From contig CAVZKD010000007.1 of assembly GCA_963775735.1 (NCBI GenBank), positions 1,799,088-1,863,087 on the forward strand: a stretch of DNA of 64,000 bases, given 5' to 3'. The number at the start of each line of letters is the position of its first letter. Positions within the stretch are counted from its first letter, which is position 1. The notes beneath the pieces are model-generated. The model was not told the origin of the DNA and did not search any database. It saw only the letters and a program-made list of their open reading frames with translations. Both the position numbers and the translations under genes were made by a program. Shown here in pieces: positions 18,712 through 33,829 of the stretch. This DNA is from an uncultured Actinomycetes bacterium (GTDB lineage: Bacteria; Actinomycetota; UBA4738; HRBIN12).

Positions 18712-19668
18712 CTAGCCGGAGAACCCCGGGCCCAGACGCAGGACCGTCTCGATCTCCGACAACAGCGTCTCGTCGAGTTCGATGTCGCCGGCCGCCGCGT
18801 TGTCGCGGACGTGCGCCGGATCGCGGCTCCCCGCGATGGCGGCGGTCACATCCGGTTGGTGGAACGTCCATGCGAGCGCGAGCTGCGAGAGCGTGCACCC
18901 CAGTCGCTCGGCGATCGGTCGCAGGCCCTCGACCACGTCGAGCGCTGGACGCCGCACCTTCTGAGTGAACAGGGCGTCATACGCCTCTCCCCGGCTCCCG
19001 CGGAAGTCGCCCTTCGCGAACGTCGTATCCATGGTGATCGCCCCGGTGAGCAGTCCGTACGCGAGCGGCCCGTACGCGAGGACCCCGAGACCCTGTTCGC
19101 CGCACCAGCGGATCAGCTCCCGGTCCTCGAGCACGAGCATGGAGAACTCCTGTTGGAGCGAGTCCACGTGGCGGATCGCCAGGCAGCGCTCGATCAGTTC
19201 CTGGTCGAAGTTCGAGACGCCGATCGCGCGCGCGAGCCCCTGCTCGACGAGCAGGCCCATCGCGCCCCAGGTCTCCTCGACCGGGATGCCCGTCTCGTCG
19301 GGCCAATGCAGTTGATAGATGTCGATGTGATCGGTGTCCAGGCGCCCGAGGCTCTTCCTGCAGGCCGCGGCGACCTCCTCGGGGCGGAAGCCGCTCCCTG
19401 CGGGCCGCGGCGCGACCTTCGTCGCGATCCGGATGCGCTCGCGCCTGCCGGCCACGGCCTGCCCCACGAACTCCTCGGAGGTGCCGCGTCCGTAGACCTC
19501 CGCCGTGTCGATCCAGTCGACCCCGGTCTCGAAGACGGCGTCGATGGCCGCGCGGATCTGGTCGTCGGGTGGAGCCTCTCCCCATTCGGAGCCCTTGCCC
19601 GCCTCCCACGCCCCGAACCCCACGGCCGAGAGCTCGGGCCCGTCTCGCCCCAACCGCTGCGTCCTCAT
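18712..19668 (-). CDS. Aldo/keto reductase
   Basis: 318-aa ORF with GFGAWEAG, IDTAEVYG, and IGVSNF motifs. Confidence 0.85.
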   Translation of the reverse strand: MRTQRLGRDGPELSAVGFGAWEAGKGSEWGEAPPDDQIRAAIDAVFETGVDWIDTAEVYGRGTSEEFVGQAVAGRRERIRIATKVAPRPAGSGFRPEEVAAACRKSLGRLDTDHIDIYQLHWPDETGIPVEETWGAMGLLVEQGLARAIGVSNFDQELIERCLAIRHVDSLQQEFSMLVLEDRELIRWCGEQGLGVLAYGPLAYGLLTGAITMDTTFAKGDFRGSRGEAYDALFTQKVRRPALDVVEGLRPIAERLGCTLSQLALAWTFHQPDVTAAIAGSRDPAHVRDNAAAGDIELDETLLSEIETVLRLGPGFSG

Positions 19669-19806
19669 GAACGGACGCTAACAAGGAACGGAGCGGGCGG
19701 TTCGCGATCGATCGGGCGTGAGAAGTTCATCACTATCAGCCATTCGGCCGATAGGAGCGGACGTTCGGCCGATGTCGATGTCCCCCGGACGCCTTACGGT
19801 AACGGC

Positions 19807-19977
19807 ATGGCGGTCTTCCCGGTCAAGCAGGTGATGCAGCGGCGACAGCTCGAGCCGCTCCGGATCTTCTGCTCACGATGCGACCATTCCGAGTTCATCC
19901 ACGGCGACTTCGACGCTCGCCGGTGCCTGTACACCGAGTGCGCCTGTAGCGGGTTCACCCTGATCGCCCTGGACTAG
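19807..19977 (+). CDS. Small Cys-rich hypothetical protein (weak call)
   Basis: 56 aa, MAVFPVKQVMQRRQLEPLRIFCSRCDHSEFIHGDFDARRCLYTECACSGFTLIALD. It is the tail of a long artefactual ORF. No clear SD. Confidence 0.3.
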   Translation: MAVFPVKQVMQRRQLEPLRIFCSRCDHSEFIHGDFDARRCLYTECACSGFTLIALD

Positions 19978-20509
19978 ACGCTCGTCGCATCTCGTACCGA
20001 ACGACGAACCGCTTCCGGTCGCGCTCGATCCGCTCGACCAGGTGCATCCCGACCTTCTCGGCGACCCGGATCGAGGGAACGTTCTCCGAGCTCGCGTACG
20101 CCCGCACGACCTCGGCGCCCAGCGTCACCAAGACGTACGCGACGAGCGCCCCCACCGCCTCGGTCGCATACCCGCGTCCCTGGAACACGGGCGCGATCGT
20201 GTATCCGATCTTGACCACGCCCTCCTCGCCCTCGGCGAGGCTGAGCCCGACGTCCCCGACCAGCCGCCCACCCTCCCGTTCCTCGACCGAGAACTGGACC
20301 CACCCACCGGGCTCGCCCGGCGCCCGGGCGGTCATCGCCTCGATCTGCTCTCCGATCCCCTCCGGATCGAGCCGGTCCCAGCCCTGATACCGGTGCACGT
20401 CCGGGTCGCTCCGGTACGCGGAGATCGACGAGGCGTCCTCGGGCGTCGATCGGCGAAGCCGCAACCGCTCCGTGACGAGCGGCTCGAAGTGGCTGTCGAC
20501 GCGCACCAC
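19955..20509 (-). CDS. GNAT family N-acetyltransferase (RimJ/RimL-like)
   Basis: 184-aa ORF with TERLRLRR.. and IAPVFQGRGYATEA. Confidence 0.8.
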   Translation of the reverse strand: MVRVDSHFEPLVTERLRLRRSTPEDASSISAYRSDPDVHRYQGWDRLDPEGIGEQIEAMTARAPGEPGGWVQFSVEEREGGRLVGDVGLSLAEGEEGVVKIGYTIAPVFQGRGYATEAVGALVAYVLVTLGAEVVRAYASSENVPSIRVAEKVGMHLVERIERDRKRFVVRYEMRRASSPGRSG

Positions 20510-20534
20510 GGCGCCAGGCTACCGGCGCCGTGCC

Positions 20535-22415
20535 TCAGCCGTGCACGACGAACCGGTCGACCGACACGAACGTCCCGTCGGCCGCCGGCCGGCCGGCACC
20601 GAGGACGACGATCCGCACCGTGTGGACGCCGTCGATGAGCCCGCCCACCGGCCGTGTCACTCCGAACGCCGGGTTCGCCGCGTAGTTGTCGACCGTTCGC
20701 ACGAGCACGCCATCGACGTAGATCTCGGCCCGTCCCTGTCGGGGGTCGCGCACCGTGTACCAGTCGACCCCGGTCCCGCGGAACGTGAACGTCACGCTCG
20801 CCCGCGCGAGGTCGCTCGTGGCGAGGCTCCCGCCCGATGCCTGCTGCGCGTCGACGCCGGCCCACGACAGCTCGAGCTCGGGGCCGGCGACCACGCCGCC
20901 CGCCGCCGCGAACGCGTCCACCGCCACCTGGGTGTCCGTCGCGTTCGACGACCCCCTGCCGAGCACGCGGACGGTGATGGTGTGCGGGCCGGGCCCGAGT
21001 CCCGTGAACCGGTGGGCGACGTCGAACCTGAGACGGTTCCCGTACTGGTCGAACGTGCCCCGTCCGACGCCGTCGATCGCGATCGCAGCGCGACCCATCG
21101 CGGGACCGACCGTCGTGTACCAGGTGACCGAGCCGCCGGTGAACGCGAACGTCGCCGTCGCGCTTCTCGAGCGCTCGACCGCGTAGGACCCCCCGCGGGC
21201 ACGAGGGCTCTGCACGGTCCGCCATGCGTAGGAGGTGGCGTCGCTCGTCTCCTCCACGTCGGTCGGAGCGGCGAAGGGCACCACGGTCTCGGGTGCCGCA
21301 TTGCCGCTGCGATCGACGACCGGCACCGGGATGCCGAACGGGTTCACGACCGCCTCGTACCCCTCGCCCGGGACGAGCGGCGCGAGCGGCTGCACGTCGA
21401 CACGGCGGACGTTCCCGGTCGCGCAGTCGACCTCGGCGCCCGGACCCGACCGGCAAGTCGTCGAGGCCTCGACGGCGATCCCGGTCTCGGCCACCCGGAT
21501 CAGGACGTTGCTCGCGTCGATCCGCCGCACGACCTCGTTGAACGACACCGTCATCGGGTCGGACACGCCGGCCGGCAGCGTCAGGTTCGCGACCGGCGCG
21601 GTGACGTCGGGGCTCGGGATCGTGACGGGACCGAAGTCGTCGCTCTCGTACCAATCGAGGTCGACACGTCCCTCGATCCCCGGCACCGAGCCTTGGCTCG
21701 TGAACTGCCAGAACGTCCAGCCGTGCCCCGCCCAGTCGTCCGCCGGGAGCCGCGGCTCTTCGACGCCCCAATGCGCGACCCAGAGCACCGTGTAGCCGGC
21801 CTCGGCGACCGCCGTCGTGTCACCCGTCCGCGTCGCCCACCCGCTCGGGCTCGTGTAGATCATCGGTCGCACGCCGAGGCGTTCGGTGACCCGCCCGAGC
21901 CAGGTCAGGATCCACTTGGTCACCCCGGCATGCGAGAGCCCCCCGGTGCGCTCGATGTCCAGGACCGGGATCAGGTTGCCGGGGGTCAGCTGCGCCGTGG
22001 TGACGAAATGGTCGGCCTCGCGCACCGCGTCGTTCGCCGAATCGTCGGGTCTGGCAAAGTGGTAGGCGCCGAACACGAGCCCGGCGGCCTGCGCGTTGAA
22101 CTTGTTGATCGCGTACAGCGGGTCGACGAAGCTCCGTCCTTCGGTCGCCTTCGCGAACACGAAGCGATGCCCGGCGGCCGCGACGTCCGGCCAGTCGATC
22201 GTGTCCTGGTGATGCGAGACGTCGATCCCGGGCACGGCCCCTGGAGGCTGTCCCAACGCGGCCGAGAAGGCCGGGGCCCGGGCGTGACCGGCGATCGCCG
22301 CGGCACCGGCGGTGATCCCCTCGGCGACCGGAGCGGAGATCGAGGCCGACAGCACGACGGCGGCGAGCAGCGTGGAGAGCGCCATCACCCAGTTCGAACG
22401 CCTGAACGCGGTCAC
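20535..22415 (-). CDS. Secreted GH25 muramidase with large C-terminal beta-rich (carbohydrate-binding-like) repeats
   Basis: 626-aa ORF with a signal peptide. GIDVSHHQDTIDWPDVAAAGHRFVFAKATEG and FGAYHFARP are GH25 signatures. The C-terminal half shows two similar segments of about 110 aa. Confidence 0.8.
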   Translation of the reverse strand: MTAFRRSNWVMALSTLLAAVVLSASISAPVAEGITAGAAAIAGHARAPAFSAALGQPPGAVPGIDVSHHQDTIDWPDVAAAGHRFVFAKATEGRSFVDPLYAINKFNAQAAGLVFGAYHFARPDDSANDAVREADHFVTTAQLTPGNLIPVLDIERTGGLSHAGVTKWILTWLGRVTERLGVRPMIYTSPSGWATRTGDTTAVAEAGYTVLWVAHWGVEEPRLPADDWAGHGWTFWQFTSQGSVPGIEGRVDLDWYESDDFGPVTIPSPDVTAPVANLTLPAGVSDPMTVSFNEVVRRIDASNVLIRVAETGIAVEASTTCRSGPGAEVDCATGNVRRVDVQPLAPLVPGEGYEAVVNPFGIPVPVVDRSGNAAPETVVPFAAPTDVEETSDATSYAWRTVQSPRARGGSYAVERSRSATATFAFTGGSVTWYTTVGPAMGRAAIAIDGVGRGTFDQYGNRLRFDVAHRFTGLGPGPHTITVRVLGRGSSNATDTQVAVDAFAAAGGVVAGPELELSWAGVDAQQASGGSLATSDLARASVTFTFRGTGVDWYTVRDPRQGRAEIYVDGVLVRTVDNYAANPAFGVTRPVGGLIDGVHTVRIVVLGAGRPAADGTFVSVDRFVVHG

Positions 22416-22482
22416 GGTTCCGTCCGTCGTCCTCCCTAGCTCGCGGGCAGTACGGCTCGCCGTGGGCGGGCGGCGATCCAGC

Positions 22483-23367
22483 TCAGCCCCCCCGGAGCAC
22501 CGATCGGGTCAGGCACGTCGGCCCGCCCTCGCCCTTGTGCGAGATCTCGGAACCGTCGTAGACGTGCACCTCCACCCCGACGCGCTCCATGCGTCGCCTG
22601 GTCTCCGGGTTGCCCTCGACCGCGACGGCCACGCGCGGGGCGAGCGCGAGGACGTTGGGGCCCATGCCCGCGAACTCCTGGTCCGGCACCGGCACGATCT
22701 CGATGCCGCGCTCGGCGAGCAGCTCCATGAGGCGGACCGGCAGGAGCGGGACGAACGCGACGACGAGATCGCGGTCGAGCGGCGAGAGCAGCGACATGAG
22801 ATGCAGACAGGTCGAGGGTCCGTCTCGATGCGGGAGGTCGAAGGCGAGCACGTCGACGGCGGGCATCGCGGCGCGGAGCGCCGCGATGCCCGCCTCGTTC
22901 GTTCGATAGCTGCGCCCGACGAGCAGCGTCTGCTCGTCGAGCCACATCGTGTCGCCGCCCTCGGCCGTGGCAGGCTCCCGCATCTCGGAGGCGACCGGTA
23001 CACCGAGCGTCCGCATCTCGGCGGCGATCGCCGCGGGCTCGACGCGGCGCCCCGGCTTCCCCGGGCGGAGCACGATCGCCCCGGCATCCGACATGATCGC
23101 CGGGTCGCACGTGTAGAGGGCGTCTGGGTCGCCCGGCAGGAGCTCCTGCGCGCACAAGACCTCGGCGCCGGCGGCCTGGAGGATCTCGCGCAGCCGCTCG
23201 TGCTGGCGCGCCGCGATCACGACGTCCGGCTCGCCGAGCCAGCCGAACTCGCGCCACCGGGAGAGGTCGGTTCGCTCGGGCGTACGGACGAGGACCCGAC
23301 GCAGCGGCTCGACCAGGGTCTGCCCGCCGTAGGCCTGCGAGGCGGTGGCGGAGCCGGTGGGAGGCAC
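22483..23367 (-). CDS. Amidinotransferase-fold enzyme (dimethylarginine dimethylaminohydrolase / arginine deiminase-like)
   Basis: C-terminal 294 aa of ORF 22483..23673 from GTG 23367. Ends with the GGPTCLTRSVL catalytic-Cys motif typical of this superfamily. Confidence 0.7.
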   Translation of the reverse strand: MPPTGSATASQAYGGQTLVEPLRRVLVRTPERTDLSRWREFGWLGEPDVVIAARQHERLREILQAAGAEVLCAQELLPGDPDALYTCDPAIMSDAGAIVLRPGKPGRRVEPAAIAAEMRTLGVPVASEMREPATAEGGDTMWLDEQTLLVGRSYRTNEAGIAALRAAMPAVDVLAFDLPHRDGPSTCLHLMSLLSPLDRDLVVAFVPLLPVRLMELLAERGIEIVPVPDQEFAGMGPNVLALAPRVAVAVEGNPETRRRMERVGVEVHVYDGSEISHKGEGGPTCLTRSVLRGG

Positions 23368-23385
23368 CCGGGTAGGGTAGTTGCC

Positions 23386-23850
23386 GTGGCGAAGCTCGCG
23401 CCCGGAGATCCGGCACCCGCGTTCTCCCTGCTGGACCAGCACGGGAACACCGTTCGGCTCGGGGACTTCGACGGCCGGGTCCTCGTCTACTTCTACCCCG
23501 AGGCCGATACGCCGGGTTGCACCCGGCAGTCGTGTTCCCTGCGGGACCACCGACAGGATCTCGCCGGCATCGGGCTGGACGTGGTCGGGATCTCGCCCGA
23601 CCTTCCCGACAAGCAGCTCGCGTTCGATCGGAAGTACGAGCTCGGGTTCCCGTTGCTGTCCGACCCCGACCATTCCGTCGCCGATGCCTACGGCGCCTGG
23701 GGCGAGAAGACCAGGGAGGGCGGCGAGACCTCTGTCGGCCTCATCCGATCATCGTTCCTCGTCGGGCCCGACGGCCGGATCGAGCAGGCCTGGTCACCGG
23801 TCACGCCGGAGGACACGGTACCGAGGGCCCTCGCCGCGGTCGGCGCCTAA
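23386..23850 (+). CDS. bcp: Peroxiredoxin, Bcp type
   Basis: 154 aa from GTG 23386 with VLVYFYPEADTPGCTRQSC. Divergent from the previous gene with only 18 bp between starts. Confidence 0.85.
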   Translation: MAKLAPGDPAPAFSLLDQHGNTVRLGDFDGRVLVYFYPEADTPGCTRQSCSLRDHRQDLAGIGLDVVGISPDLPDKQLAFDRKYELGFPLLSDPDHSVADAYGAWGEKTREGGETSVGLIRSSFLVGPDGRIEQAWSPVTPEDTVPRALAAVGA

Positions 23851-24191
23851 ACGCTCTGCGCGTCCTTGAGCGAGTCCTGCGAGGAGACGAAGACGATCAA
23901 GTCGTCGTCGACGAGCCCCGTCCGCTCCAACGACCTCGTGGCTTCGCGATCGGGCAGGTACAGCACGACCATCCGCTGTCCTCGCCCGTTCATCTGCTCC
24001 GCGACGCTCTTGATCGCACCGCACCCCTCGTCGGTGACCTCCTCGACCTCACGCAGGTCGACGGTGGCATCGAGATGGGCGGGGTCGGCAAGCCGGGTTC
24101 GCAGCCGATCCTCGTCCTCCTCGGTGAGCCGACCCCACGCGATGACGTAGGGACGCGTGTCGGGGCGCCCGATCCGCTGGATGACCGCCAT
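23847..24191 (-). CDS. STAS-like (anti-sigma-antagonist-fold) small protein, tentative
   Basis: 114 aa from ATG 24191 (AAGGA 9 nt upstream). Reads MAVIQRIGRPDTRPYVIAWGRLTEEDEDRL...VDLREVEEVTDEGCGAI...ATRSLERTGLVD. Confidence 0.45.
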   Translation of the reverse strand: MAVIQRIGRPDTRPYVIAWGRLTEEDEDRLRTRLADPAHLDATVDLREVEEVTDEGCGAIKSVAEQMNGRGQRMVVLYLPDREATRSLERTGLVDDDLIVFVSSQDSLKDAQSV

Positions 24192-24332
24192 CGCCCGCAT
24201 CCTTGCACGCCCGGGCCCGGGGCGCAGTCGGGAGGTCGGGGGAACGGCAGGACGGGAGCATCCGAAGCCGAAGGTGCGAGGAGCGGGCGGCCACGAGGGA
24301 TGGGGCGATGCCGCACGACGCGTAGCCACGCA

Positions 24333-24518
24333 TCAGCGACGACGTGGCACCGCGGCGGGTCGCTCCTCGCGGACGTGCTTCCGACGTTGGGAGCGGATCA
24401 CCTGGATGAGCTCGCAGTGGTCGCAGAGTCCCGTGCCGACGTTGGTCGTGAGCCCGCCGCACCGAGCGCACCCGTACGAGAGCGTTTTCACCGGTTCGAT
24501 CGCGGGTCGCCGATGCAC
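24333..24518 (-). CDS. Small zinc-ribbon protein, hypothetical
   Basis: 61-aa ORF with CARC...CDHC and a basic tail. GC3-rich. Confidence 0.4.
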   Translation of the reverse strand: MHRRPAIEPVKTLSYGCARCGGLTTNVGTGLCDHCELIQVIRSQRRKHVREERPAAVPRRR

Positions 24519-24594
24519 TCACCCATACTCCCCACACCGTAGGGCGACCAGCCGATGGCGGGAATAGGTCGGAAGTCGGTTCCTATCCCTGTCG

Positions 24595-25290
24595 ATGACG
24601 ACCCGCATGGTTCCGGCGTTCCTCCCGAGTACGTCGGGGTTCCGGTTCGCGAACGCGTTCCCGAACGTCCCGGTCCGCCGGATCGGGATCCCGGGCGTGA
24701 TCAGCGTTCCCATCGGCGACGCGTCGAACGGGCTGTGCGGGGGCATGGCCTTCGCGGCCCGCGACTACTTCGAAGCGGGCCGGTCCCCACCCGAGGTCGA
24801 GGAGCCGCCGGGCGAAGGCGAACTGTTCGACTACCTGGTCGACCGCTTGTTCGACAGCTTCGACCTGCCGGTCGGGCCCGTTCGCTACCTGGAGCTCATG
24901 CACCCGTTGCTCCCCGACGGCGAGACCTTCTGGAGCCGGCTCGGGATCGGACCGCACGGGCGCGCGCATCGCATGCTGAAGCAGGAGTGGCCGAAGGTAC
25001 GCGAGGACATCCACGCGGGGCACCCCTCGGCCCTCGGCCTCATCCGCGTGAGATCGACCGACCCGTTCGAACTCAAGCGGAACCACCAGGTCCTCGCCTA
25101 CGGGTACGACCTCCTGGGAACCCACCTGACGCTGCGCCTGTACGACCCGAACCACCCGCGTTCGGACGACGTCACGCTCTCGCTCAGCCTCGCCGACCCC
25201 TCGGAGCCCACGACCATCATCACATCTCCCGCCGGGCCGGCGGTCTTCGCGTTCTTCCGCGTGCCCTACGGATCGGCGACACCGCCGTAG
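24595..25290 (+). CDS. Cytosolic papain-fold cysteine peptidase-like protein (C39-like layout)
   Basis: 231-aa ORF. ASNGLCGGMAFAARDYF (Cys), NHQVLAYGYD (His) and RLYDPNHP (Asp) occur in C39-like order. No signal peptide and no TM helix. Confidence 0.5.
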   Translation: MTTRMVPAFLPSTSGFRFANAFPNVPVRRIGIPGVISVPIGDASNGLCGGMAFAARDYFEAGRSPPEVEEPPGEGELFDYLVDRLFDSFDLPVGPVRYLELMHPLLPDGETFWSRLGIGPHGRAHRMLKQEWPKVREDIHAGHPSALGLIRVRSTDPFELKRNHQVLAYGYDLLGTHLTLRLYDPNHPRSDDVTLSLSLADPSEPTTIITSPAGPAVFAFFRVPYGSATPP

Positions 25291-25390
25291 CCCGAACGGG
25301 CGTCTCACCGCGTAGCCCGAACGCCCCTCCCGTCGCCGGACGCGGCGGTGCATCCTTCGAGTCCGGCAACGGCGATGTCCATCGAGAGGG

Positions 25391-26023
25391 GTGGCCGTGG
25401 CATCGACGCCGACACGCAGGGCGAGGGATCCCGCGCCGACGTTCGTGTGGGACGACCAGATCGAGCATCTCTACGAGTCGTGGCATCGGCGCGTCGCCGC
25501 TGCCGAGCACGGACATCGACTGATGGCGGACCGACTGCGGCGACGACATCTGCTGATCGGGATCCCGGTCGTCGTGCTCACGACGCTCGTCGGCACGAGC
25601 GCCTTCGCCTCGATGCAGAACTCTCGGTCCGACTCGATCACGACCTCCGGGGTGGACTCGAACACGATCCTGCTCATCGTCGGCTTGATCAGCGTGCTCG
25701 CCGCCGTCCTGTCGAGCCTCCAGACCTTCCTGCGCTACGCGACGCGGGGCGAGGGACATCGCATCGCGGCGCTGCGCTACGAATCGCTCCGCCGCGAGAT
25801 GGCCAAGACGCTGGCGATCCCGCGCGAGGTCCGAGGTGCTCCCGATCGCGACCTGGACGACGCCCGCCAGAAGATGGACCGGTACGCGAAGGAGTCGCCG
25901 GCGATCGGCGAGCGACAGTGGGGCAAGCTCACGTCGAAGTTCCACCTGTCGACGGTTCCGCCGGATCCCGGATGGCACGGCGAACGGGTGGTCATCCCGG
26001 AGGAGGTCGCCGATCGACGCTGA
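25391..26023 (+). CDS. SLATT-like two-transmembrane protein
   Basis: 210-aa ORF. A long N-terminal helix (YESWHRRVAAAEHGHRLMADRLRRRH) is followed by TM1 LLIGIPVVVLTTLVGTSAFA, TM2 ILLIVGLISVLAAVLSSL, and then RYATRGEGHRIAALRYESLRREM. This layout matches SLATT effectors. Confidence 0.55.
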   Translation: MAVASTPTRRARDPAPTFVWDDQIEHLYESWHRRVAAAEHGHRLMADRLRRRHLLIGIPVVVLTTLVGTSAFASMQNSRSDSITTSGVDSNTILLIVGLISVLAAVLSSLQTFLRYATRGEGHRIAALRYESLRREMAKTLAIPREVRGAPDRDLDDARQKMDRYAKESPAIGERQWGKLTSKFHLSTVPPDPGWHGERVVIPEEVADRR

Positions 26024-27161
26024 CCTCGTCCTCGAGGGCGGCGGCGTCAAGGGCATCGGGCTCGCCGGCGCGTACACGACGTTGCACGAAGCCGGGTACA
26101 CCTTCCACCGGATCGCCGGGACCTCGGCCGGTGCGATCGTGGGCGCGCTCATCGCCGCCGGCATGTCCCCGGACGAACTGCAACGCGAGATGCGCGAGAT
26201 CGACTACGGCCGCTTCGAGGACAAGGGGTTCCTCGACCACCTGACGCTCGTCGGCAAGGGATTGTCGTTGCTGTTCGAGAAGGGGATCTACGAGGGCAGG
26301 TACCTGCGGACGTGGCTCGACGAGCGGCTCGCGTCGCTCGGCGTCCGGACCTTCGGCGACCTCCGGCTCGAGGACCCGGGCGGGTCGCTCCCGGTCGAAC
26401 GGGCGTACCGACTCGTCGTGATGACATCGGACGTGACGAGGGCGCGACTGATCCGGCTCCCCTGGGACTACCCGCAGTACGGTCTCGACCCCGACGAGCA
26501 GCTCGTCGCCGACGCCGTCCGGACATCGATGTCGATCCCCTTCTTCTACGAGCCGGTCCGGTTCACCGGCCGCGATGCCGAGGGCAAGCAGGCCGTCTCG
26601 TTCATGGTGGACGGCGGGATGCTGTCGAACTTCCCCGTCGATGTCTTCGACCGCACGGACGGCAAAGCGCCGCGGTGGCCGACCTTCGGGATCAAGCTGT
26701 CGGCGCGACCCGATGCGGCGCAGCGCCAGAAGTACGAGGTGCACGGGACGTTCAGCCTGGCCCGGGCCATGGTCGGGACGATGACGAGCTTCCACGACCA
26801 GATCCACATCGACGAGCCCTCGACGCTCGCCCGGACGATGTTCGTCGACACGATGGGCGTCCGGGCCACCGACTTCGAGATCGACGAGGGGATGCAGGAC
26901 ATGCTGTTCAGCAGCGGCAGGCGGGCGGCGACCGAGTTCCTGCGTGGATGGGACTTCGATCGGTACCTCGCCGAGTTCCGCAGCGACGCGGTCGTCGACC
27001 TCCGGGAGCCTGTGGGGGTCGCGAGCGGCTCGCCCGCTGAGGGGGACACCGGCGTGGCGTCGGGCCCGGGGGCTTGGGACCTGGAGGACTTCGACCTGGA
27101 CGCCTACGAGGCGCCGCCGCCGGAGCTCGAGGACGAAGAGCCCGCCGAGGCGAAGGGTTAG
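26013..27161 (+). CDS. Patatin-like phospholipase (5' end unresolved; possibly fused to the SLATT-like ORF)
   Basis: GGGVKG oxyanion motif, GTSAG nucleophile elbow and VDGGMLSNFP catalytic Asp, with an acidic tail. No in-frame ATG, GTG or TTG occurs between 25836 and the conserved N-terminus IDADLVLEGGG. The SLATT frame is the GC3-rich one up to 26021 and sits one base behind the patatin frame. Confidence 0.8.
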   Translation: MDADLVLEGGGVKGIGLAGAYTTLHEAGYTFHRIAGTSAGAIVGALIAAGMSPDELQREMREIDYGRFEDKGFLDHLTLVGKGLSLLFEKGIYEGRYLRTWLDERLASLGVRTFGDLRLEDPGGSLPVERAYRLVVMTSDVTRARLIRLPWDYPQYGLDPDEQLVADAVRTSMSIPFFYEPVRFTGRDAEGKQAVSFMVDGGMLSNFPVDVFDRTDGKAPRWPTFGIKLSARPDAAQRQKYEVHGTFSLARAMVGTMTSFHDQIHIDEPSTLARTMFVDTMGVRATDFEIDEGMQDMLFSSGRRAATEFLRGWDFDRYLAEFRSDAVVDLREPVGVASGSPAEGDTGVASGPGAWDLEDFDLDAYEAPPPELEDEEPAEAKG

Positions 27162-27163
27162 CG

Positions 27164-27910
27164 GTGTCGCCTCCGCTCCGCGATTACCCGTCGCCCCCAG
27201 GCGTCTCCCGGACCGCCGCGAGTGCGCGCGGGTGGGGCACCGGGTGGCCGCAGTGTCAGCAGGACCGGCTCGTCACGGTCACGCGCGAGGACGGCCTCCG
27301 GCTGCCGACGAATCAAGGCATCGCGCAGTTGGTCACGCTGCTGATCGACGAGACGGAGCGTCGCGGGTACGACGTCAAGGTGGGCCAGACGTGGGGCTTC
27401 GCGTGCCGGGCGATCCGAGGGACGGAGACGGCCTCGAACCACTCATGGGGCCTGGCGGTGGACATCAACGCGCCGACGAACCCATACCGGACCGAGTTCG
27501 TCTGCGACATGCCGCCGTGGATGCCGACGCTCTGGTGGGAGTACGGGTTCTTCTGGGGTGGCTGGTACCAGAGCATCAAGGACCCGATGCACTACGAGTT
27601 CCTCGGCACCCGCGACGACGCCCGCACCCACACGACGAGAGCCAAGCGCGAGCTCGGCCTGGGCGAACCCGTGCCGTATCCCTTCTACGGAGAGATCTCG
27701 AAGCGGGTGCGTTCGGCCCAGGAGCGGCTACTCGAGCTCGGCTTCGATCCCGGCCGATCGACGGCGACTTCGGTCCGCTGACGCGCGGTGCGGTGAAGGC
27801 GTTCGAGGAGTCCGAGCCGAGGCTCCAGAGCCAGGCCGACGGCTACTTCGGCCCGCTCACGTGGCGGCTCCTGTTCAAGGTCCGAGCAGCGCATCCCTCC
27901 GAGCCCGTAG
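27164..27910 (+). pseudogene. M15 family peptidoglycan peptidase with C-terminal PG_binding_1 domain; frame breaks near 27754 and before 27908, 3' end uncertain
   Basis: GTG 27164 lies 3 nt after the patatin stop. SNHSWGLAVDIN and DPMHYEF are zinc-ligand motifs. After ..ELGFDPG (ggccg where ggcccg is expected) the PG-binding repeat continues in another frame (PIDGDFGPLTRGAVKAFE..DGYFGPLTWRLL). No signal peptide. Confidence 0.65.
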
Positions 27911-27936
27911 CTCCATCCGCGTACCATCCAGACCGC

Positions 27937-28617
27937 ATGCCGAAGGGTCCGTCGAAGGTCGCGGTCTACCTCGAGGTCGGCACGAAGCGGATCTTCGCGG
28001 GCGCGGTCGACTGGCCCGGGTGGGCGCGGAGCGGGCGCGACGAGGCATCCGCGCTCGAGTCGCTGCTCGCATACGCCCCGCGCTACGCGCGGGTGGTCGG
28101 GCGTTCCCGGGTCGGTTTCGGAGCGCCGGCGACCGTCTCGGGCATGCGCGTCGTCGAACGGCTGGAAGGCACCACGACGACCGACTTCGGAGCCCCGGAC
28201 GTGCCGACGTCCACGGACGCAGAGCCGATCGACGCCGCCGAGCTCGAGCGCCTCGAGAAGATCCTCCGGGCGTGCTGGCGTGCGCTCGACAGAGCGGTGG
28301 AGGCGGCCGAGGGCCGTGAGCTCCGGAAGGGGCCGCGGGGCGGAGGCCGAAGCCTCGACAAGATCGTGGAGCACGTGATCGGCGCCGAAGGCGACGGGTA
28401 CCTGCGGAGCATCGGATGGAAGGTCCCGAAGGGTCCGGAGGACGAACGGATCGCTCGGGAACGCGCGACGGTGCTCGAGGCGCTCACCGCGGTGGCGCGA
28501 GACGGCGTGCCTCCCGCTCCCCGCGGCGGCAAACGCTGGGCGCCCCGCTACTTCGTGCGCCGCTCCGCGTGGCATGTGCTCGACCACACGTGGGAGATCG
28601 AGGACCGCCTCGAGTGA
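27937..28617 (+). CDS. DinB-fold family protein
   Basis: 226 aa from ATG 27937 inside ORF 26944..28617. Contains RSLDKIVEHVIGAE and SAWHVLDHTWEIEDR, His-rich four-helix-bundle motifs. Confidence 0.6.
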   Translation: MPKGPSKVAVYLEVGTKRIFAGAVDWPGWARSGRDEASALESLLAYAPRYARVVGRSRVGFGAPATVSGMRVVERLEGTTTTDFGAPDVPTSTDAEPIDAAELERLEKILRACWRALDRAVEAAEGRELRKGPRGGGRSLDKIVEHVIGAEGDGYLRSIGWKVPKGPEDERIARERATVLEALTAVARDGVPPAPRGGKRWAPRYFVRRSAWHVLDHTWEIEDRLE

Positions 28618-28624
28618 TCGGCCG

Positions 28625-30122
28625 TCACTCGACGCGGAAGTCGCCGCTCGCGAGCGCCACGTAGCTGTCGTCTCGAAGCAGGTAGACGGTGTAGGCGCCC
28701 GGCTCCAGCGGCCAGGCGCCGGGGGCATCGGCGTCGAAGACCGCGGACCCCTCCACGGTGCCGTCCGTTCGGACCCACGTCAGGTACGAGGCTCGGTTCG
28801 GATCGGCGTCGCGCCGGTAGATGCCGACCCAATCCCAGCGGTTGCCCGGCGTGAGGCGCCACGCGACCTCGATCGGGCTCGCCGACCCCGTAGGAGGGTC
28901 GAACCGTCCCGATCTCCGGCTCGCCGCCGGCCGCCTGCACCCAGAACGGCGCACGGGCGAGTTCCGCACCCGATTCGGAGCGCAGGACGACCTCGTAGGC
29001 ACCCGGCCGCAGGGTCGCCGTTGGGACGGTCACCTCGTCCTCGCGGGCGAGGTACTCGACCGTCGCGTCCGCCGCGTCCGCCCCAGCCGGGACGACGGCG
29101 ATCGCGACCGCATCCGGAGTCGCGTGGTAACGCACGACCAGTTCCTCGCCCACCGTGACCAGCCGCTGGTCGACGGACACGATCGTCGGCGCCGGCGCGG
29201 GTTCCACCTCGAACGTCGAGACCGTCGCGCGATGGTCGGTCGGCCACGGGGTCACGGCGATGTCGACGCCCTCGCCTCCTTCCTCGCCGACGAGCTCGCT
29301 GTCGATCGTCTCTGCCGGGCCGCCCGCGTACACGAAGTCGATCCGGTCGGCCGCCGCGCCTGCCTGATACGGGTTGTAGCCCTGGATGAACGGCCGGTCC
29401 GCCGGCCAGGTCAGACCCGGGTCGGCGACGGGATCGGGGTTCGCCTCGCGATACGAGTCGGCGAGGCCCGCCTGCTCCACCGCCACGCTCGCGGGCCACG
29501 CGAGCGGGAACCGGACGTGGTCGCGGATCCCCACGGCGGCGTCGGTCCAGTCCAGGTGCGACGGGGCGTTGAAGTCCCCGATCAGGAACACGGGCACGCC
29601 GTCCGCCGCCAGCCCCTCGACCACCGCGAGCGTCGGAGCGAGCGCCGCGACCCGTTTGCGCTCCTCGACATCGAGGACCTCCTCGGCGCTCGCGCCGTCG
29701 CGGATCTTGAACGGACCGTAGGCGACCGAGGGCAGATGGACGTTCGCGACGGCCACGACGGAGCCGGGTGCGACCTCCACGTAGACGAAGGGCTGATCGC
29801 CGGGCGGCGTCAGGAGCGGGAATCGCGACATCACCTGCGACCGGTTGTCGAAGTACCACCCGACCGATCCGGCGATCGCCGGCATGTTCCCGTAGCCCTC
29901 CTCGATCGCGACGATGTCGGCGCCGCTCGCCTCGACGACCTTCGGGATCGAGTCGAAATCGACCCCGGTCCCGCCGTACTCGACGTTGAACTCCATCACC
30001 CGGAGCGTGAGCGGTTCGACGCCGGGAGCAGCGCTCGGGGTCGGGCCGGCCGGCTCGGGACCCGACGTGCACGCGGCGACGAGGAGGATCGGCGCGACGA
30101 ACAGCAGCACCCGACGGGCCAT
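28625..30122 (-). pseudogene. Endonuclease/exonuclease/phosphatase (EEP) family lipoprotein with C-terminal beta domains; one frame break near 28876
   Basis: ATG 30122 gives MARRVLLFVAPILLVAAC (lipobox), then LRVMEFNVEYG, VANVHL, IGDFNAPSH and PTDHRATV. After ..SYGVGEP it continues in the ORF 28625..29002 frame (IEVAWRLTPGNRWDWVGIY...). Confidence 0.7.
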
Positions 30123-30281
30123 CGCGTTCGATGCTACGCGTGGAAGGCCGACAGCCGCTCGGCCCCGTCGTCGACCTCGCCGCGGACCGCGCGCGGGAGG
30201 CGCTCGAACGGTTCGACGCGCAACGCGACCTCGGTCGAGGCGCTCGCGGACACGGTGGGTAAGGTGAAACGAGGCGATCTG

Positions 30282-30414
30282 ATGGATCACGGCCACGACG
30301 GGCACCAGACATGGAGGCACGCCTCGCACGGCGAGATGTCGCACGGCGAGATGTCGCACGGCGAGATGTCGCACGGCGAGATGGGCGCATGGCCGACATG
30401 GGCACACGAGTGGC
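30282..30414 (+). other. His/Met-rich N-terminal extension of the ATPase, one base out of frame with the ATG at 30415
   Basis: ATG 30282 (GAGG 8 nt upstream) gives MDHGHDGHQTWRHASHGEMSHGEMSHGEMSHGEM... After about 30385 the frame of the ATPase itself reads ..HGRHGHTSGMGHGHS. This fits one metal-binding N-terminus split by an indel. Confidence 0.55.
30324..30383 (+). repeat. Perfect 15-bp x4 tandem repeat encoding (SHGEM)4
   Basis: tcgcacggcgagatg repeated four times. Confidence 0.9.
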
Positions 30415-32436
30415 ATGGGCCACGGCCACAGCGTCGCGATGTTCCGCGATCGCTTCTGGCTGAGCGTGCTCCTCACGATCCCGATCCTGATCTGGTCCGA
30501 GATGATCCAGGAGTGGCTCGGGTACACGGCGCCCGAGTTCCCGCTCTCCGATCGGATCCCGGCCATCCTCGGCACCGTCGTGTTCGTCTACGGAGGGTTG
30601 CCCTTCCTCCAGGGCGGCTGGGCGGAGCTGCGTGGCCGGCAACCCGGGATGATGCTCCTGATCTCGCTGGCGATCGTGGTCGCCTTCGTCTCCAGCATCG
30701 CGTCCGAGCTCGACGCCCTCGATCTCGAGTTCTGGTGGGAACTGGCCCTGCTCATCGACGTGATGCTGCTGGGGCATTGGCAGGAGATGCAGGCGCTCGG
30801 GCGCGCGTCCGGCGCGCTCGAGGCCCTCGCCGCGCTCCTTCCCGACGAGGCCGAGGTGCTCCACGACGGGCACGCGCAGGCCGTCGCGCTCGCCGAGGTC
30901 CGGCCGGGTGACCTGGTGCTGGTCCGCCCCGGTGGGCGCGTACCCGCCGACGGACTGATCGAAGAGGGATCGGCGGAGTTCGACGAGTCGATGATCACCG
31001 GCGAGTCGAGCCTCGTCCGTCACGACGCCGGCGACCGCGTGGTCGCGGGAACGATCACCACCGACACCTCGGTACGGGTACGGGTGCAGGCGGTCGGCGA
31101 GGACACGGCGCTCGCGGGGATCCGCCGGCTCGTGCAGGCGGCGCAGTCCTCGCGTTCCAAGGCGCAGGCGCTGGCCGACCGCGCCGCGGCGATCCTGTTC
31201 TACGTCGCGGTGGGAGCCGGCATCCTCACCTTCGCGGTGTGGAGCCTCATCGGGGAGACCGGTGAGGCGGTCGAGCGGACCGTGACGGTGCTCGTCATCT
31301 CGTGCCCCCACGCGCTCGGTTTGGCGATCCCCCTCGTGATCGCGATCTCGACGGACATCGCGGCCCGCGCCGGGATCCTGGTGAAGGACCGGCTGGCCCT
31401 CGAGCGCATGCGGTCCGTGGATGCCGTCCTGTTCGACAAGACCGGCACGCTCACCGAGGGCCGGCCGGCCGTGCGCGAGATCGCAGGGGCGGGCATCACT
31501 CAGGAGGACGTTCTGCGGCTCGCGGCGGCGGTCGAGGCCGACAGCGAACACCCGCTGGCGCGCGCGATCCTCGCGGCGGCCGCGGACACGTACCGTCCGC
31601 TGCCCGCAGCGACGAGCTTCCGCGCGATGCCGGGCCGCGGGGTCGAGGCGGACGTGGACGGTTCGACGGTCTCGGTCGGTGGCCCCACGCTGTTGCGGGA
31701 ACGGGGGCTCGACGAGGCGACCGAGCTCGCGGAAGACGTCTCGAGGTGGCGCGCGCGAGGTGCGACGGTCCTGTTCGTGATCCGCGACGGCCGCGTCGTC
31801 GGGGCGATCGCGCTCGAGGACGCGGTCCGGCCGGAGTCCGCGGAGGCCGTTCGCGCGCTCAAGGCCGAGGGGATCGTCGTCGCGATGATCACGGGCGACG
31901 CGCGGCAGGTGGCGGAGGCGGTCGCCGCCGAGCTGGGCGTCGACGAGGTCATGGCAGAGGTCCTCCCCGAGGACAAGGCGGACGCCGTCGCGGATCTCCA
32001 CCGTCGCGGCTTCCGGGTCGCGATGGTCGGCGACGGCGTGAACGACGCCCCCGCGCTGGCGAGCGCGGACGTCGGGATCGCCATCGGCGCCGGAACCGAC
32101 GTCGCGATCGAATCGGCGGGTGTCGTCCTCGCGAGCGACGACCCGCGCGGTGTGCTGTCGGTGCGACGGCTCTCCGGTGCGAGCTACCGGAAGATGCGTC
32201 AGAACCTCGTGTGGGCGGTCGGATACAACGTCGTCGCGATCCCCCTCGCCGCCGGGGTGCTGGCGCCGGTCGGCTTCGTGCTTGCGCCCGCCGTGGGAGC
32301 GTTGGCCATGAGCGTGTCGACGATCGTGGTGGCGGTGAACGCGATGCTGCTCCGCGGCCTCGACCTGCGACCCTCGGCGACCTCCGCGGCACCCGCATCC
32401 GAACCGGCGACGGCTGCGTCCGTGGGATCCCGCTAG
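30415..32436 (+). CDS. Heavy-metal P1B-type ATPase, CopB-like (CPH motif)
   Basis: 673-aa ORF with ISCPHALGLAIP (CPH), DKTGTLT, MITGD and VGDGVNDAPAL. Confidence 0.9.
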   Translation: MGHGHSVAMFRDRFWLSVLLTIPILIWSEMIQEWLGYTAPEFPLSDRIPAILGTVVFVYGGLPFLQGGWAELRGRQPGMMLLISLAIVVAFVSSIASELDALDLEFWWELALLIDVMLLGHWQEMQALGRASGALEALAALLPDEAEVLHDGHAQAVALAEVRPGDLVLVRPGGRVPADGLIEEGSAEFDESMITGESSLVRHDAGDRVVAGTITTDTSVRVRVQAVGEDTALAGIRRLVQAAQSSRSKAQALADRAAAILFYVAVGAGILTFAVWSLIGETGEAVERTVTVLVISCPHALGLAIPLVIAISTDIAARAGILVKDRLALERMRSVDAVLFDKTGTLTEGRPAVREIAGAGITQEDVLRLAAAVEADSEHPLARAILAAAADTYRPLPAATSFRAMPGRGVEADVDGSTVSVGGPTLLRERGLDEATELAEDVSRWRARGATVLFVIRDGRVVGAIALEDAVRPESAEAVRALKAEGIVVAMITGDARQVAEAVAAELGVDEVMAEVLPEDKADAVADLHRRGFRVAMVGDGVNDAPALASADVGIAIGAGTDVAIESAGVVLASDDPRGVLSVRRLSGASYRKMRQNLVWAVGYNVVAIPLAAGVLAPVGFVLAPAVGALAMSVSTIVVAVNAMLLRGLDLRPSATSAAPASEPATAASVGSR

Positions 32437-32461
32437 CCGGCGCCCTTCACTCCCCTATCGT

Positions 32462-33790
32462 GTGCCCGTGGCGGCTCGCACGGAGACCATCAACGTCGCC
32501 GGGCGCGAGGTGAAGGTCTCGAACCCGGACAAGGTCTTCTTCCCGAAGGCCGGCCACACGAAGCTCGACCTCGTCCGGTACTACCTCGCGGTGGCCGACG
32601 GAGCGCTCCGCGGTGTCTCCGGCCGGCCGATGGCGCTGAAACGGTTCGTGAACGGCGCCGAGGGCGAGTTCTTCTTCCAGAAGCGCGCGCCGACTTCCCG
32701 CCCAGACTGGATCGAGACCGTCGAGCTGCGGTTCCCCTCGGGCCGGACGGCGCACGAGATCGTGATCTCGGACGAGGCACAGCTCATCTGGATCGCGAAC
32801 CTCGGCTGCATCGACCTGAACCCCCACCCGGTGCGTGCCGACGACCTGGACCATCCCGATGAGCTGCGCGTCGACCTGGACCCGGTGCCCGGCATCGAGT
32901 GGCCGCAGATCCGAGATGTGGCGATCGTGACGAGGGACGTCCTGACGGACCTGGGCCTGATGGGGTGGCCGAAGACGTCCGGCTCACGCGGCATCCACGT
33001 CTACGTGCGGATCGAGCGGCGGTGGACCTTCCCGGAGGTTCGACGCGCCGCGCTCGCGGTCGCGCGCGAGGTCGAGCGACGGGCGCCCGATCTGGCGACG
33101 AGCCGCTGGTGGAAGGAGGAACGGCACGGCGTGTTCCTCGACTACAACCAGAACGCGAAGGACCGCACGGTAGCCTCCGCGTATTCGGTCCGGCCGACCC
33201 CAGACGCCCGGGTCTCGACCCCGCTGTCATGGGACGAGGTTGCCGACGCCGACGCGTCGGCGTTCACGCTCGCGACCGTGCCGACGCGCTTCGCGTCGAT
33301 CGGCGACCCGTGGGAGGGGATCGACGAGGGGGCCGGATCGCTCGAGCGGCTGCTCGAGCTCTCGGCCGAACACGAGGCCGCGGGCTTCGGCGACGCGCCG
33401 TGGCCGCCGCAGTACGCGAAGGCAGCGGGCGAGCCGCCGCGTGTGCAGCCCTCGAAGCGGAGGATGTCGGGCCCGACCGAGCCGGAGGGCGTCGTCCCGC
33501 CGCCGGCTCCCGGGAAGAAGGTCGGCCCCACCGGACGCCGCCGGACGAATGCTCCGCTGATCGAGATCGCGCGCGCGGCGACCGAGGCCGAGGCGAAGAC
33601 GGGGCTGGAGCGTTGGCGGTCGCGTCACCCGGGCGTGTCTCCGTACCTGGAGCCCTCCGACGTGATGATCGACGCGATGCGTGGCCGCTTCACGACCTGG
33701 ACACGGATCCGCGTCAACCTCCGGCATGTCCCGGAGGACGAGCGCCCGCCCCAGGAGGCGCTCGAGGTCGACTACGACCCGTGGGAGTGA
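32462..33790 (+). CDS. Stand-alone LigD-type NHEJ polymerase/primase domain protein with C-terminal extension of about 140 aa
   Basis: 442-aa ORF with VKVSNPDKVFFP, GCIDLNPHP, LRVDLDP, KTSGSRGIHVYV and FLDYNQN. Confidence 0.85.
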   Translation: MPVAARTETINVAGREVKVSNPDKVFFPKAGHTKLDLVRYYLAVADGALRGVSGRPMALKRFVNGAEGEFFFQKRAPTSRPDWIETVELRFPSGRTAHEIVISDEAQLIWIANLGCIDLNPHPVRADDLDHPDELRVDLDPVPGIEWPQIRDVAIVTRDVLTDLGLMGWPKTSGSRGIHVYVRIERRWTFPEVRRAALAVAREVERRAPDLATSRWWKEERHGVFLDYNQNAKDRTVASAYSVRPTPDARVSTPLSWDEVADADASAFTLATVPTRFASIGDPWEGIDEGAGSLERLLELSAEHEAAGFGDAPWPPQYAKAAGEPPRVQPSKRRMSGPTEPEGVVPPPAPGKKVGPTGRRRTNAPLIEIARAATEAEAKTGLERWRSRHPGVSPYLEPSDVMIDAMRGRFTTWTRIRVNLRHVPEDERPPQEALEVDYDPWE

Positions 33791-33829
33791 GGACGGCAGC
33801 CAGCCGCCCAGAACCGTTCCTTTGCAGGA

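Follow-up and report, generated by a model that had tools for sequence, protein, structure and literature searches.

We analyzed a 64,000-nucleotide (nt) stretch of DNA (contig CAVZKD010000007.1, positions 1,799,088 to 1,863,087; hereafter, the window) from an uncultured Actinomycetes bacterium of the HRBIN12 lineage, in which a preliminary description had proposed a cassette of envelope-attacking genes. Five co-directional open reading frames (ORFs) are present on the plus strand between positions 24595 and 28617, just where that description had placed them, and the GC content is about 70% throughout the window. In order, they encode a cytosolic Cys/His/Asp peptidase-like protein that we call p1, a SLATT protein with two transmembrane (TM) helices, a patatin-like phospholipase, an M15 zinc peptidase carrying a PG_binding_1 domain, and a DinB_2-fold protein (Table 1); these domain calls had been made correctly from the outset. 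When Pfam was searched with the window proteins, Patatin and Peptidase_M15_4 exceeded their thresholds, DinB_2 was marginal, and SLATT_4 and PG_binding_1 remained below threshold. Comparison with about 100 related loci, which are numbered here with the prefix L, revealed that p1, SLATT, and patatin form a conserved core, which we tentatively read as a sensor-less operon for demolition of the cell envelope.

Table 1. Coordinates of the cassette genes, sequence elements, and related features. Positions refer to the window unless a related locus is named.
Feature	Position	Strand	Details
p1	24595..25290	+	231 amino acids (aa), cytosolic; putative Cys48/His164/Asp184(Asn186) peptidase-like active site
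SLATT_4 protein	25391..26023	+	210 aa, two TM helices; NCBIfam, PADLOC, hydropathy
AGGAGG Shine-Dalgarno-like site	26001..26006	+	inside the 3' end of SLATT, 6 nt upstream of the patatin initiation position
Patatin-like phospholipase	26013..27161	+	382 aa, start ATC; Pfam Patatin
Acidic C-terminal tail of patatin (WDLEDFDLDAYEAPPPELEDEEPAEAKG)	27075..27158	+	conserved motif, last ~28 residues
LAS/M15_4 zinc peptidoglycan peptidase + PG_binding_1	27164..27910	+	leaderless; HSWGLAVD, DPMHYEF; frameshifted in the window
DinB_2-fold protein	27937..28617	+	226 aa; DinB_2 24.9 bits against a cutoff of 24.8
Bcp/AhpC-type peroxiredoxin	23389-23850		upstream of the cassette
Acidic mini-ORF	L003 9630-9776; L055 9462-9599; L056 ~4880-5040		

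The second gene product, for which a SLATT layout had been suggested, indeed matches the NCBIfam model SLATT_4 (NF033632) with 101 bits (E=5.4e-29; cutoff, 55 bits), and its hydropathy profile has exactly two peaks, at residues 54-72 and 92-110, followed by RYATRGEGHRIAALRYESL. The corresponding Pfam model (PF18186) gave a sub-threshold score for the window protein (18.1 bits; threshold, 27) and was matched by 17 of 35 orthologues. Among the defense-system profiles of PADLOC, the 2TM effector profile recognized the protein with E=5e-14, and a SLATT profile associated with reverse transcriptases (RTs) matched weakly (E=0.0066). The patatin call is likewise borne out by the Pfam Patatin model (E=2.9e-36; 125.9 bits against a threshold of 27.7) and by the presence of the GGGVKG oxyanion loop, the GTSAG serine motif, and VDGG, which contains the DGG aspartate. 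Sequence matches to PlpD, VipD, and ExoU are restricted to its N-terminal region. The patatin was recognized by the PADLOC phospholipase profile (3.6e-12), reached 28.5 bits with the NCBIfam CBASS_lipase model (cutoff, 200), and showed a very weak RssA-type match. PADLOC, which had been proposed as a check on the cassette, thus recognized both the 2TM effector and the phospholipase but no complete system.

We surveyed gene linkage by tblastn of the five window proteins against all related loci collected, and scanned one genome per GTDB species for further SLATT loci. The scan found 43 such loci, almost all in metagenome-assembled genomes of uncultured soil Actinomycetota. Whereas the preliminary description had treated the five genes as one unit, the conserved core consists of p1, SLATT, and patatin, and M15 is optional; the three core genes are linked in dozens of loci, but the five-gene order is not conserved as a unit. 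Patatin lies directly 3' of SLATT in 16 of the 18 assessable species-representative loci with a SLATT identity of at least 55%. Three gene orders were observed directly. In the first, found in the window, p1 lies directly 5' of SLATT, giving p1-SLATT-patatin. The second, SLATT-patatin-p1, occurs in L019, L021-L025, L057, L066, L111, and L133. The third, represented by L089, L095, and L130, places p1 after a patatin of 43-47% identity, and the SLATT gene, also divergent, is on the opposite strand. Given that this clustering recurs in dozens of independent loci, it goes far beyond chance, and its retention through rearrangement and in different flanks is our chief reason for assuming that the three core genes function jointly. 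More distant SLATT_4 paralogues (35-45% identity) have M15_4 and patatin genes nearby in L020, L030, and L039, indicating that SLATT_4, patatins, and wall hydrolases come together more than once.

A different cassette surrounds some of the SLATT paralogues (L030 4844-10197; also L031, L034, L040, L041, L052, and L028). It comprises a divergent gene of about 265 codons, whose product has a weak eCIS_core (DUF4157) match, followed by SLATT, a protein of 174-192 aa without assigned function, and a metallo-beta-lactamase-fold protein of about 370 aa. In L034, a patatin-like fragment with a DGG motif recognized by eye adjoins this cassette, as does a 529-aa protein without a Pfam match, whose LVLDCCSSG motif appears caspase-like by eye.

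The junction between SLATT and patatin was of particular concern, as the preliminary description had found no patatin start codon and had proposed that an inserted base conceals a single SLATT-patatin polypeptide of about 590 aa. The observation itself holds: there is no ATG, GTG, or TTG from position 25836 to the conserved patatin N-terminus. This N-terminus begins at an ATC (26013-26015), which overlaps the SLATT stop codon (26021-26023) by 11 nt (ATCGACGCTGA). In orthologues with canonical starts, SLATT and patatin are separate genes, usually with the same 11-nt overlap (GTG/ATGGACGCTGA). We therefore took a census of the codon aligned with window positions 26013-26015 in 35 distinct SLATT-patatin junctions. 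The codon is ATG in 18, GTG in nine, and ATC in seven, while the remaining locus, L124, has an ATG two codons upstream. In the window-type arrangement, the 11 nt that overlap the SLATT stop (xTGGACGCTGA) begin with the start codon. In all 35 junctions, the patatin start is preceded at 5-7 nt by a purine-rich, Shine-Dalgarno (SD)-like run.

The seven ATC junction sequences belong to the lineages of the window, L010, L001/2, L006/7, L008/9/121, L018, and L055. They include assemblies with k-mer-derived contig names (k141) and JGI assemblies, that is, non-nanopore data, so ATC is a real allele rather than a nanopore indel. Upstream of the ATC, L001/2 and L055 have an in-frame stop at a distance of 7-21 codons, and no ATG, GTG, or TTG precedes the GGGVKG loop. 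L008 and L018 have no canonical start upstream of the ATC and carry a GTG four codons downstream (the Val of DLVLEGGG); this Val codon is GTC in the window, L010, L001/2, L006/7, and L055, where the alternative GTG start is accordingly absent. As a measure of selection on the gene, the ratio of nonsynonymous to synonymous substitution rates (dN/dS) of patatin is 0.14-0.30 in ATC lineages and 0.18-0.43 in canonical-start lineages, which are indistinguishable. Purifying selection on the ATC-start patatin indicates that the gene is being kept and hence, we infer, that AUC serves as its start. Bacteria can initiate at this codon (genetic code table 11), but only very weakly, with roughly 0.1-1% of the activity of AUG in Escherichia coli. 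Translation of patatin in the ATC lineages most likely occurs at a low level from AUC or by termination-reinitiation. Given the 11-nt overlap, SLATT and patatin are probably translationally coupled, and reinitiation after termination of SLATT translation 8 nt downstream may help the AUC start. Gene callers miss this start, calling truncated patatins of 326 aa (L001) and 281 aa (L055) that lack the catalytic GGGxKG loop.

That SLATT and patatin are instead made as one polypeptide of about 590 aa, through an inserted-base error or programmed +1 frameshifting at CGC-UGA, was suggested by the +1 frame of patatin relative to SLATT and the missing canonical start in the window's lineage, and an in-frame UGA after a rare CGA codon together with the upstream SD-like sequence loosely recalls prfB. 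The comparative data nonetheless render this reading extremely improbable. SLATT has 337 homologues at E<=1e-3, the best 120 of which are all stand-alone proteins of 185-253 aa with the same end point; ATG or GTG occupies exactly the ATC position in 27 of the 35 junctions; the ATCGACGCTGA junction recurs in seven distinct sequences from different kinds of assembly; and an intergenic spacer separates the two genes in L021. We rejected a fusion or a sequencing error as the cause of the missing start on the basis of these homologue lengths, the start-codon census, the non-nanopore assemblies, and dN/dS. A prfB-like +1 frameshift was considered improbable: the site lacks a slippery codon, and its SD spacing (11 nt to CGC) differs from that of known +1 frameshift sites. 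A decamer, CCGATCGACG, which includes a CGATCG palindrome, occurs both here (26010-26019) and in the M15 gene (27754-27763), the two sites that had been flagged for re-polishing. It is present six times in the window against 2.65 expected, a number reached in 4 of 100 shuffles, and its recurrence is probably a coincidence of Pro-Ile-Asp codons, though it would become relevant should a methylation-linked basecalling bias come under suspicion.

The third core protein, p1, could not be assigned to a family by searches of Pfam (E<=1), NCBIfam, PHROGs, PADLOC, or sequence profiles of the PDB. It carries the motifs NGLCGGM, NHQVLAYGYD, and YDPNHP, from which a C39-like, papain-fold peptidase had been proposed. 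In an AlphaFold2 model of high confidence (pLDDT, 90.4; pTM, 0.88), Cys48 starts a helix (residues 48-60), His164 starts a strand (164-174), and Asp184/Asn186 follow a strand (177-183), which is the order of the papain clan. When the model was compared with the PDB by Foldseek, the top match was a domain of a type VI secretion system effector (9jdd; E=0.024), followed mainly by cathepsins and papain homologues with E values of 0.1-1 and TM-scores of 0.2-0.28; neither the PDB nor BFVD yielded a match at E<=1e-3. The motifs and their order in the original proposal thus stand, while the fold is backed by weak Foldseek matches, so that membership of the papain clan is plausible on the basis of the model. 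One relative of p1 is labelled "Peptidase C39-like domain-containing protein" in UniRef.

An exhaustive profile search showed that p1 represents a family of 2,542 clusters at 50% identity. Its motifs G-x-C-G-G-M, N-H-Q-V, and Y-D-P-N hardly vary: among 31 diverse members, the Cys is present in 29, the His in 30, the Asp in 30, and the Asn in 31. The two members without the Cys are the STAND-fused and KAP-fused copies. The p1 domain is fused to B-lectin, ricin-B lectin, fucose lectin, FG-GAP, CARDB, aegerolysin, DUF346, DUF3892, and KAP NTPase domains, and a 2,675-aa protein has the architecture Trypsin_2-nSTAND1-p1-WD40. Judging from sequence conservation and the model, p1 very probably functions as a thiol enzyme and belongs to a family linked to conflict or toxins. 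Two aberrant forms of p1 were noted among the relatives. In L010 (7071-8633), the 96%-identical relative, p1 and SLATT share one 520-aa frame owing to a 1-nt insertion, private to that locus, five codons ahead of the p1 stop; it is probably a mistake of assembly, comparable to the indels in the window's M15 gene (see below). The relative L006/L007, represented by two NCBI assemblies, has lost about 70 residues from within p1 (7408-7890), and its patatin is frameshifted near residue 272 (8629-9688), while M15-PG and DinB are intact; these lesions may reflect decay of the core in one lineage.

The fourth gene encodes the proposed murein hydrolase, and the M15 peptidase and PG_binding_1 calls were upheld by a Peptidase_M15_4 (PF13539) match of 43.2 bits (E=6e-11; threshold, 25) and by the PF01471 domain of intact 248-aa orthologues. 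In the window, PG_binding_1 lies in another frame than M15_4, and its fragment scores below the cutoff (20.5 bits against 23) because of this frameshift. Relative to L010, L001, and L002, the window has a private 1-nt deletion at ~27753 and a private 1-nt insertion at ~27890. Repair of both restores a 248-aa M15 plus PG_binding_1 protein with a stop at 27908-27910, which is collinear with the intact orthologues and differs from that of L010 by one residue over the PG-binding segment. M15 is the sole broken gene among about 17 that the window shares with L010. The frameshift is an assembly artefact or a very recent lesion, and we favour an artefact because no other decay was seen. The gap between patatin and M15, reported as 3 nt, is in fact 2 nt (patatin TAG at 27159-27161; M15 GTG at 27164). 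M15-PG matches PHROG endolysin families (5.9e-17) and, weakly, the Ply500 L-Ala-D-Glu peptidase (PDB 2VO9). A 45% identical relative occupies an endolysin position between tail-like and replication genes of one IMG/VR phage contig, and matches in phage genomes of 27-30% identity lie within Rhizobium phage tape-measure proteins. On the strength of these matches, the gene counts as endolysin-like, and a phage ancestry is plausible. M15/PG is present in six of the GTDB loci, in L055-57, and in L121, overall in roughly a third to half of loci, and M15 is thus accessory to the core. As had been claimed for the peptidase, the lipase, and the murein hydrolase, signal peptides are lacking: 19-residue hydropathy found no N-terminal hydrophobic segment in p1, patatin, M15-PG, or DinB, but detected one in the neighboring GH25 protein, which served as control.

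The C-terminal tail of patatin has the consensus P-W-D-L-E-x-F-D-P-D-x-Y/H-x-E-P-P-x-x-L-E-x-E-E-P. The window, L010, L001/2, L006, L008, and L018 have it joined to patatin, and in L003, L011, L015, L016, L055, and L056 it forms a separate, mostly unannotated ORF of roughly 30-60 aa. Wherever it occurs, it is directly 5' of the M15 gene, even in L056, where M15 is located 3 kb from the core. Loci without M15 lack the motif, and their patatins are 338-340 aa long. The acidic peptide and M15 therefore constitute a sub-module, which fusion to patatin ties to the lipase in the window's clade. Our guess is that the peptide could serve as an inhibitor or chaperone of the M15 peptidase, or as a tether.

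We next consider the setting of the cassette. The closest SLATT relative (96% aa identity) is in MFD05454.bin.2.263, whose contig aligns to window positions 17386-33993 with 94.7% nucleotide identity. A block consisting of GH25, DDAH, Bcp, a 113-aa STAS-like gene, p1, SLATT, patatin, and M15/PG is common to L001, L002, L006-L008, and L010, with the STAS-like gene present in all of them but L008; DinB, Exo_endo_phos, a P-type ATPase, and LigD follow the block to varying extents in close relatives. GH25 and Bcp are still found upstream where SLATT identity is only about 60-65%. This shared block amid housekeeping genes shows that the locus is vertically inherited. The preliminary description had noted no cyclase, integrase, or phage structural gene next to the cluster, and none was found within about 8 kb in Pfam-annotated syntenic relatives. 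Likewise, no nucleotide-generating or -sensing partner of SLATT (SMODS, SLOG, TIR, or RT) was found within about 8 kb in L001-L004, L006-L009, L055, L137, or L138. Scans of the window for tRNAs and Rfam families gave no matches, and a promoter/terminator scan of the cassette returned no promoter and one terminator-like site, which is chance level and uninformative.

The DinB gene, which had been counted as a cluster member, is probably a neighbor rather than part of the module, judging from gene order. Its orthologue lies directly 5' of Bcp in L003, L013, L014, L016, L044, L059, L060, L063, L067, and L069, and in L003 (5334-6494), DinB and Bcp are called as one 386-aa protein. Only in the window's own clade is DinB downstream of M15, having moved to the 3' side of that gene. 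The adjacency and fusion of DinB with Bcp suggest a thiol-dependent redox pair. Some further features were observed around the cassette and its relatives. In L026 (5897-8435), a GH25 muramidase gene is directly 5' of the SLATT orthologue and a DEAD-box-like gene follows, with neither patatin nor p1. L008 (3425-4008) and L137 (6366-6683), whose neighborhoods are otherwise unrelated, both have PemK-type toxin genes a few kb ahead of the cassette. At 42410-45900, where the GC content of the window is lowest (62-68%), at least four overlapping frames share the coding sequence of a long repeat protein with cadherin/VCBS-like units (...VNDxPxAVDDxLTTxEDT...), reflecting either indel-ridden repeats or a truly broken adhesin gene.

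Each part of the cassette resembles a component of known systems. CBASS (antiphage signaling based on cyclic oligonucleotides) employs effectors of both superfamilies, CapV patatins and 2TM/SLATT-type proteins, for membrane attack, which is the likeness reflected in the PADLOC matches. However, no CD-NTase, SAVED or other nucleotide-sensor domain, or Cap2/Cap3 was found within about 8 kb in syntenic relatives, both effectors co-occur here instead of being alternatives, a third, peptidase-like gene is linked to them, and the CBASS_lipase score is far below its cutoff. Systems in which SLATT is the terminal membrane effector of an anti-phage system, such as DRT10 and other RT systems, include an experimental use of SLATT as membrane effector (DRT10 preprints), but the window has neither a reverse transcriptase nor a non-coding RNA (no Rfam match), and the SLATT_4 subfamily and its partners differ. 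Bacterial gasdermins and their proteases offer a parallel for a cytosolic cysteine-peptidase-like gene linked to a membrane-permeabilizing protein; here, by contrast, there is no gasdermin fold, caspase, or CHAT domain, and SLATT has no evident cleavage site or inhibitory extension. By analogy, activation by proteolysis as in gasdermin systems is possible. Mycobacteriophage lysis cassettes (holin/LysA/LysB) share with the locus a small TM protein, a leaderless wall hydrolase with a wall-binding domain, and a lipid esterase. They differ in that SLATT belongs to no known holin family, the locus is chromosomal, vertically inherited, and without phage context, and M15 is optional. The patatin fold also differs from the cutinase-like fold of LysB. 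The type 10 secretion systems (T10SSs), represented by ChiWXYZ of Serratia, TcdE/TcdL, and the lysis cassette of Yersinia entomophaga, are bacterial cassettes outside prophages that likewise combine a membrane protein with a leaderless LAS-family endopeptidase; the former is needed for the latter to reach the wall, which leads to release of leaderless proteins (PMC4259817; PMC5778951; PMC10847048). A 2TM protein and a leaderless M15 are similarly co-encoded here, but SLATT is no recognized holin and belongs to another membrane protein family, the host is a monoderm-like actinomycete, cargo is only putative, and M15 is missing from many orthologous loci, so that the core exists without an endopeptidase. 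A SLATT-patatin-peptidase triad was not described in any of the literature that our search for SLATT together with patatin or phospholipase turned up. The kinds of component are already known, while the triad with p1, the missing sensor, the AUC start, and the pair of acidic peptide and M15 are new.

Taking these findings together, we favour the view that the locus is a sensor-less envelope-demolition operon of uncultured soil Actinomycetota, acting in programmed lysis, death, or conflict, although we give this view somewhat less than an even chance. It preserves the idea of a domesticated lysis or conflict module from the preliminary description, whose composition and linkage are borne out by direct observation; pore formation, hydrolysis of lipids and wall, the trigger, and the role itself we infer from what is known of the families. 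SLATT proteins are predicted pore-forming membrane effectors (PMC7159879). Upon a cue, SLATT would permeabilize the cytoplasmic membrane, patatin would hydrolyze membrane phospholipids, and M15, where present, would reach the wall through the membrane lesion, following a holin-endolysin-lipase logic, with cell death or lysis as the outcome. p1 would either activate or process other components as a peptidase, or be a third effector. The likeliest role of such an operon would be programmed cell death in a conflict setting, either abortive-infection-like or kin-protective. Besides the domain identities, the linkage across three gene orders, the re-association of distant paralogues, the acidic motif that connects patatin to M15, the endolysin likeness of M15, and the separate genes with a real ATC start, two features speak for envelope demolition: the enzymes are leaderless although peptidoglycan is located outside the membrane, and the p1 domain occurs in conflict-type architectures (Trypsin-nSTAND1-p1-WD40, KAP NTPase-p1, and lectin/aegerolysin fusions). 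Several observations weigh against it. Nothing explains activation, as no sensor, cyclase, or NTPase is linked in the annotated neighborhoods. The housekeeping flanks (GH25, DDAH, Bcp, P-type ATPase, and LigD) are unlike typical, patchy mobile defense islands. Of the p1 orthologues with 63-70% identity, most stand alone (about 18 of the 23 loci whose flanks extend at least 2 kb on either side), and one genome has SLATT-patatin without a nearby p1, which is about 45 kb away. Because M15 is missing from about half of loci, the core must be able to do without wall hydrolysis. No Foldseek match reached E<=1e-3, so a papain-like fold of p1 lacks statistical backing, and the function ascribed to the triad is extrapolated from its families. 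Moreover, SLATT proteins are not known to act as holins. A three-effector immune or death system, in which p1 would gate the SLATT_4 pore and patatin without a nucleotide signal, a conserved AUC start, used only by way of coupling to the translation of SLATT, would throttle the lipase, and the acidic peptide would tether or restrain a domesticated endolysin, is possible, if doubtful as a whole.

The main rival to envelope demolition is T10SS-like release, in which SLATT would be a non-lytic holin, M15 would remodel the wall locally, and the leaderless patatin and p1 would be released against competitors or prey, much as ChiW/ChiX bring about the release of chitinases in Serratia. The endopeptidase of the Serratia T10SS (ChiW/ChiX) has Ply500 (2VO9) as its closest structure (PMC4259817; PMC5778951), the same structure that the signal-peptide-less M15 of the window weakly matches. 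Release would also accord with the fusion partners of the p1 domain, namely ricin-type, B-type, and fucose lectins, aegerolysin, FG-GAP, and CARDB, as found typically in toxins that act outside the cell, with the conservation of a secreted GH25 muramidase as a neighbor, and with a stable chromosomal location, which suits a physiological or antagonistic role better than it does a defense island. We nevertheless consider release unlikely, since about half of the SLATT-patatin loci lack M15, SLATT is unrelated to known holins, neither a spanin nor a regulator was seen, and there is no immunity gene for a lipase toxin. In addition, the known T10SSs go back to lysis cassettes of phages, whereas none of the phage collections searched contained a relative of SLATT or p1. 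The vertical inheritance and housekeeping flanks, the moderate purifying selection (dN/dS 0.14-0.43), and the absence of both sensor and immunity genes would suit non-lethal membrane housekeeping, with SLATT anchoring or regulating patatin (and p1) for lipid remodeling or repair and the wall genes forming a shared envelope-maintenance neighborhood. Patatins do have housekeeping roles as well, though the RssA-type match is very weak. Against such a role, SLATT_4 and the best patatin matches are effector families (PADLOC, 5e-14 and 3.6e-12), the p1 domain occurs in STAND/KAP and lectin-toxin architectures, the weak ATC start and tight overlap suggest throttled expression of a dangerous product, and the acidic motif makes a physical link between patatin and the leaderless, endolysin-like M15; housekeeping therefore appears quite unlikely.

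Two simpler accounts would deny the cassette any joint function of its own or make it a phage relic. That the genes are neighbors without a common function, adjacent only through inheritance of a block in one lineage, would be in keeping with the position of p1-SLATT-patatin-M15 within a long GH25-to-LigD syntenic block and with the many solo p1 genes. It is very unlikely in view of linkage across three gene orders and different flanks, the 11-nt SLATT-patatin overlap in most loci, the acidic motif that is alternately fused to patatin or free, and the re-association of distant SLATT, patatin, and M15 paralogues elsewhere. A decayed prophage lysis cassette of the holin/LysB/LysA type, a scenario that the preliminary description had named as fatal to its proposal, is hinted at by the PHROG endolysin matches of M15-PG, by its IMG/VR relative downstream of tail-like genes, and by a match of SLATT to a PHROG of unknown function (3e-29). 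Even so, tblastn of SLATT against 50,697 phage genomes detected no relatives, nor did scans of IMG/VR with SLATT and p1 profiles; the best M15 matches in phage genomes are the distant ones inside tape-measure proteins; there is no integrase, tRNA, or structural gene; the GC content is not deviant; and the locus, with its housekeeping flanks, is kept from 96% to about 60% SLATT identity under purifying selection. Taken as a whole, the cassette is no remnant of a prophage, and this origin is largely refuted.

The locus bears on annotation, on translation, and on the control of effector proteins. The p1 family, the acidic mini-ORF, and the real structure of the operon are absent from current annotation, in which patatin is truncated by gene callers. 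Because seven junction sequences keep patatin under purifying selection without ATG, GTG, or TTG, the locus is a natural test case for AUC initiation or termination-reinitiation in high-GC bacteria. SLATT and patatin are among the commonest "executioner" domains of bacterial immunity and are normally the outputs of a nucleotide-signaling sensor. Here, they are linked to each other and to a very large peptidase-like family, at a stable, sensor-less locus of abundant soil bacteria. If functional, the cassette would point to another mode of control for such effectors, exerted through proteolysis and/or translation.

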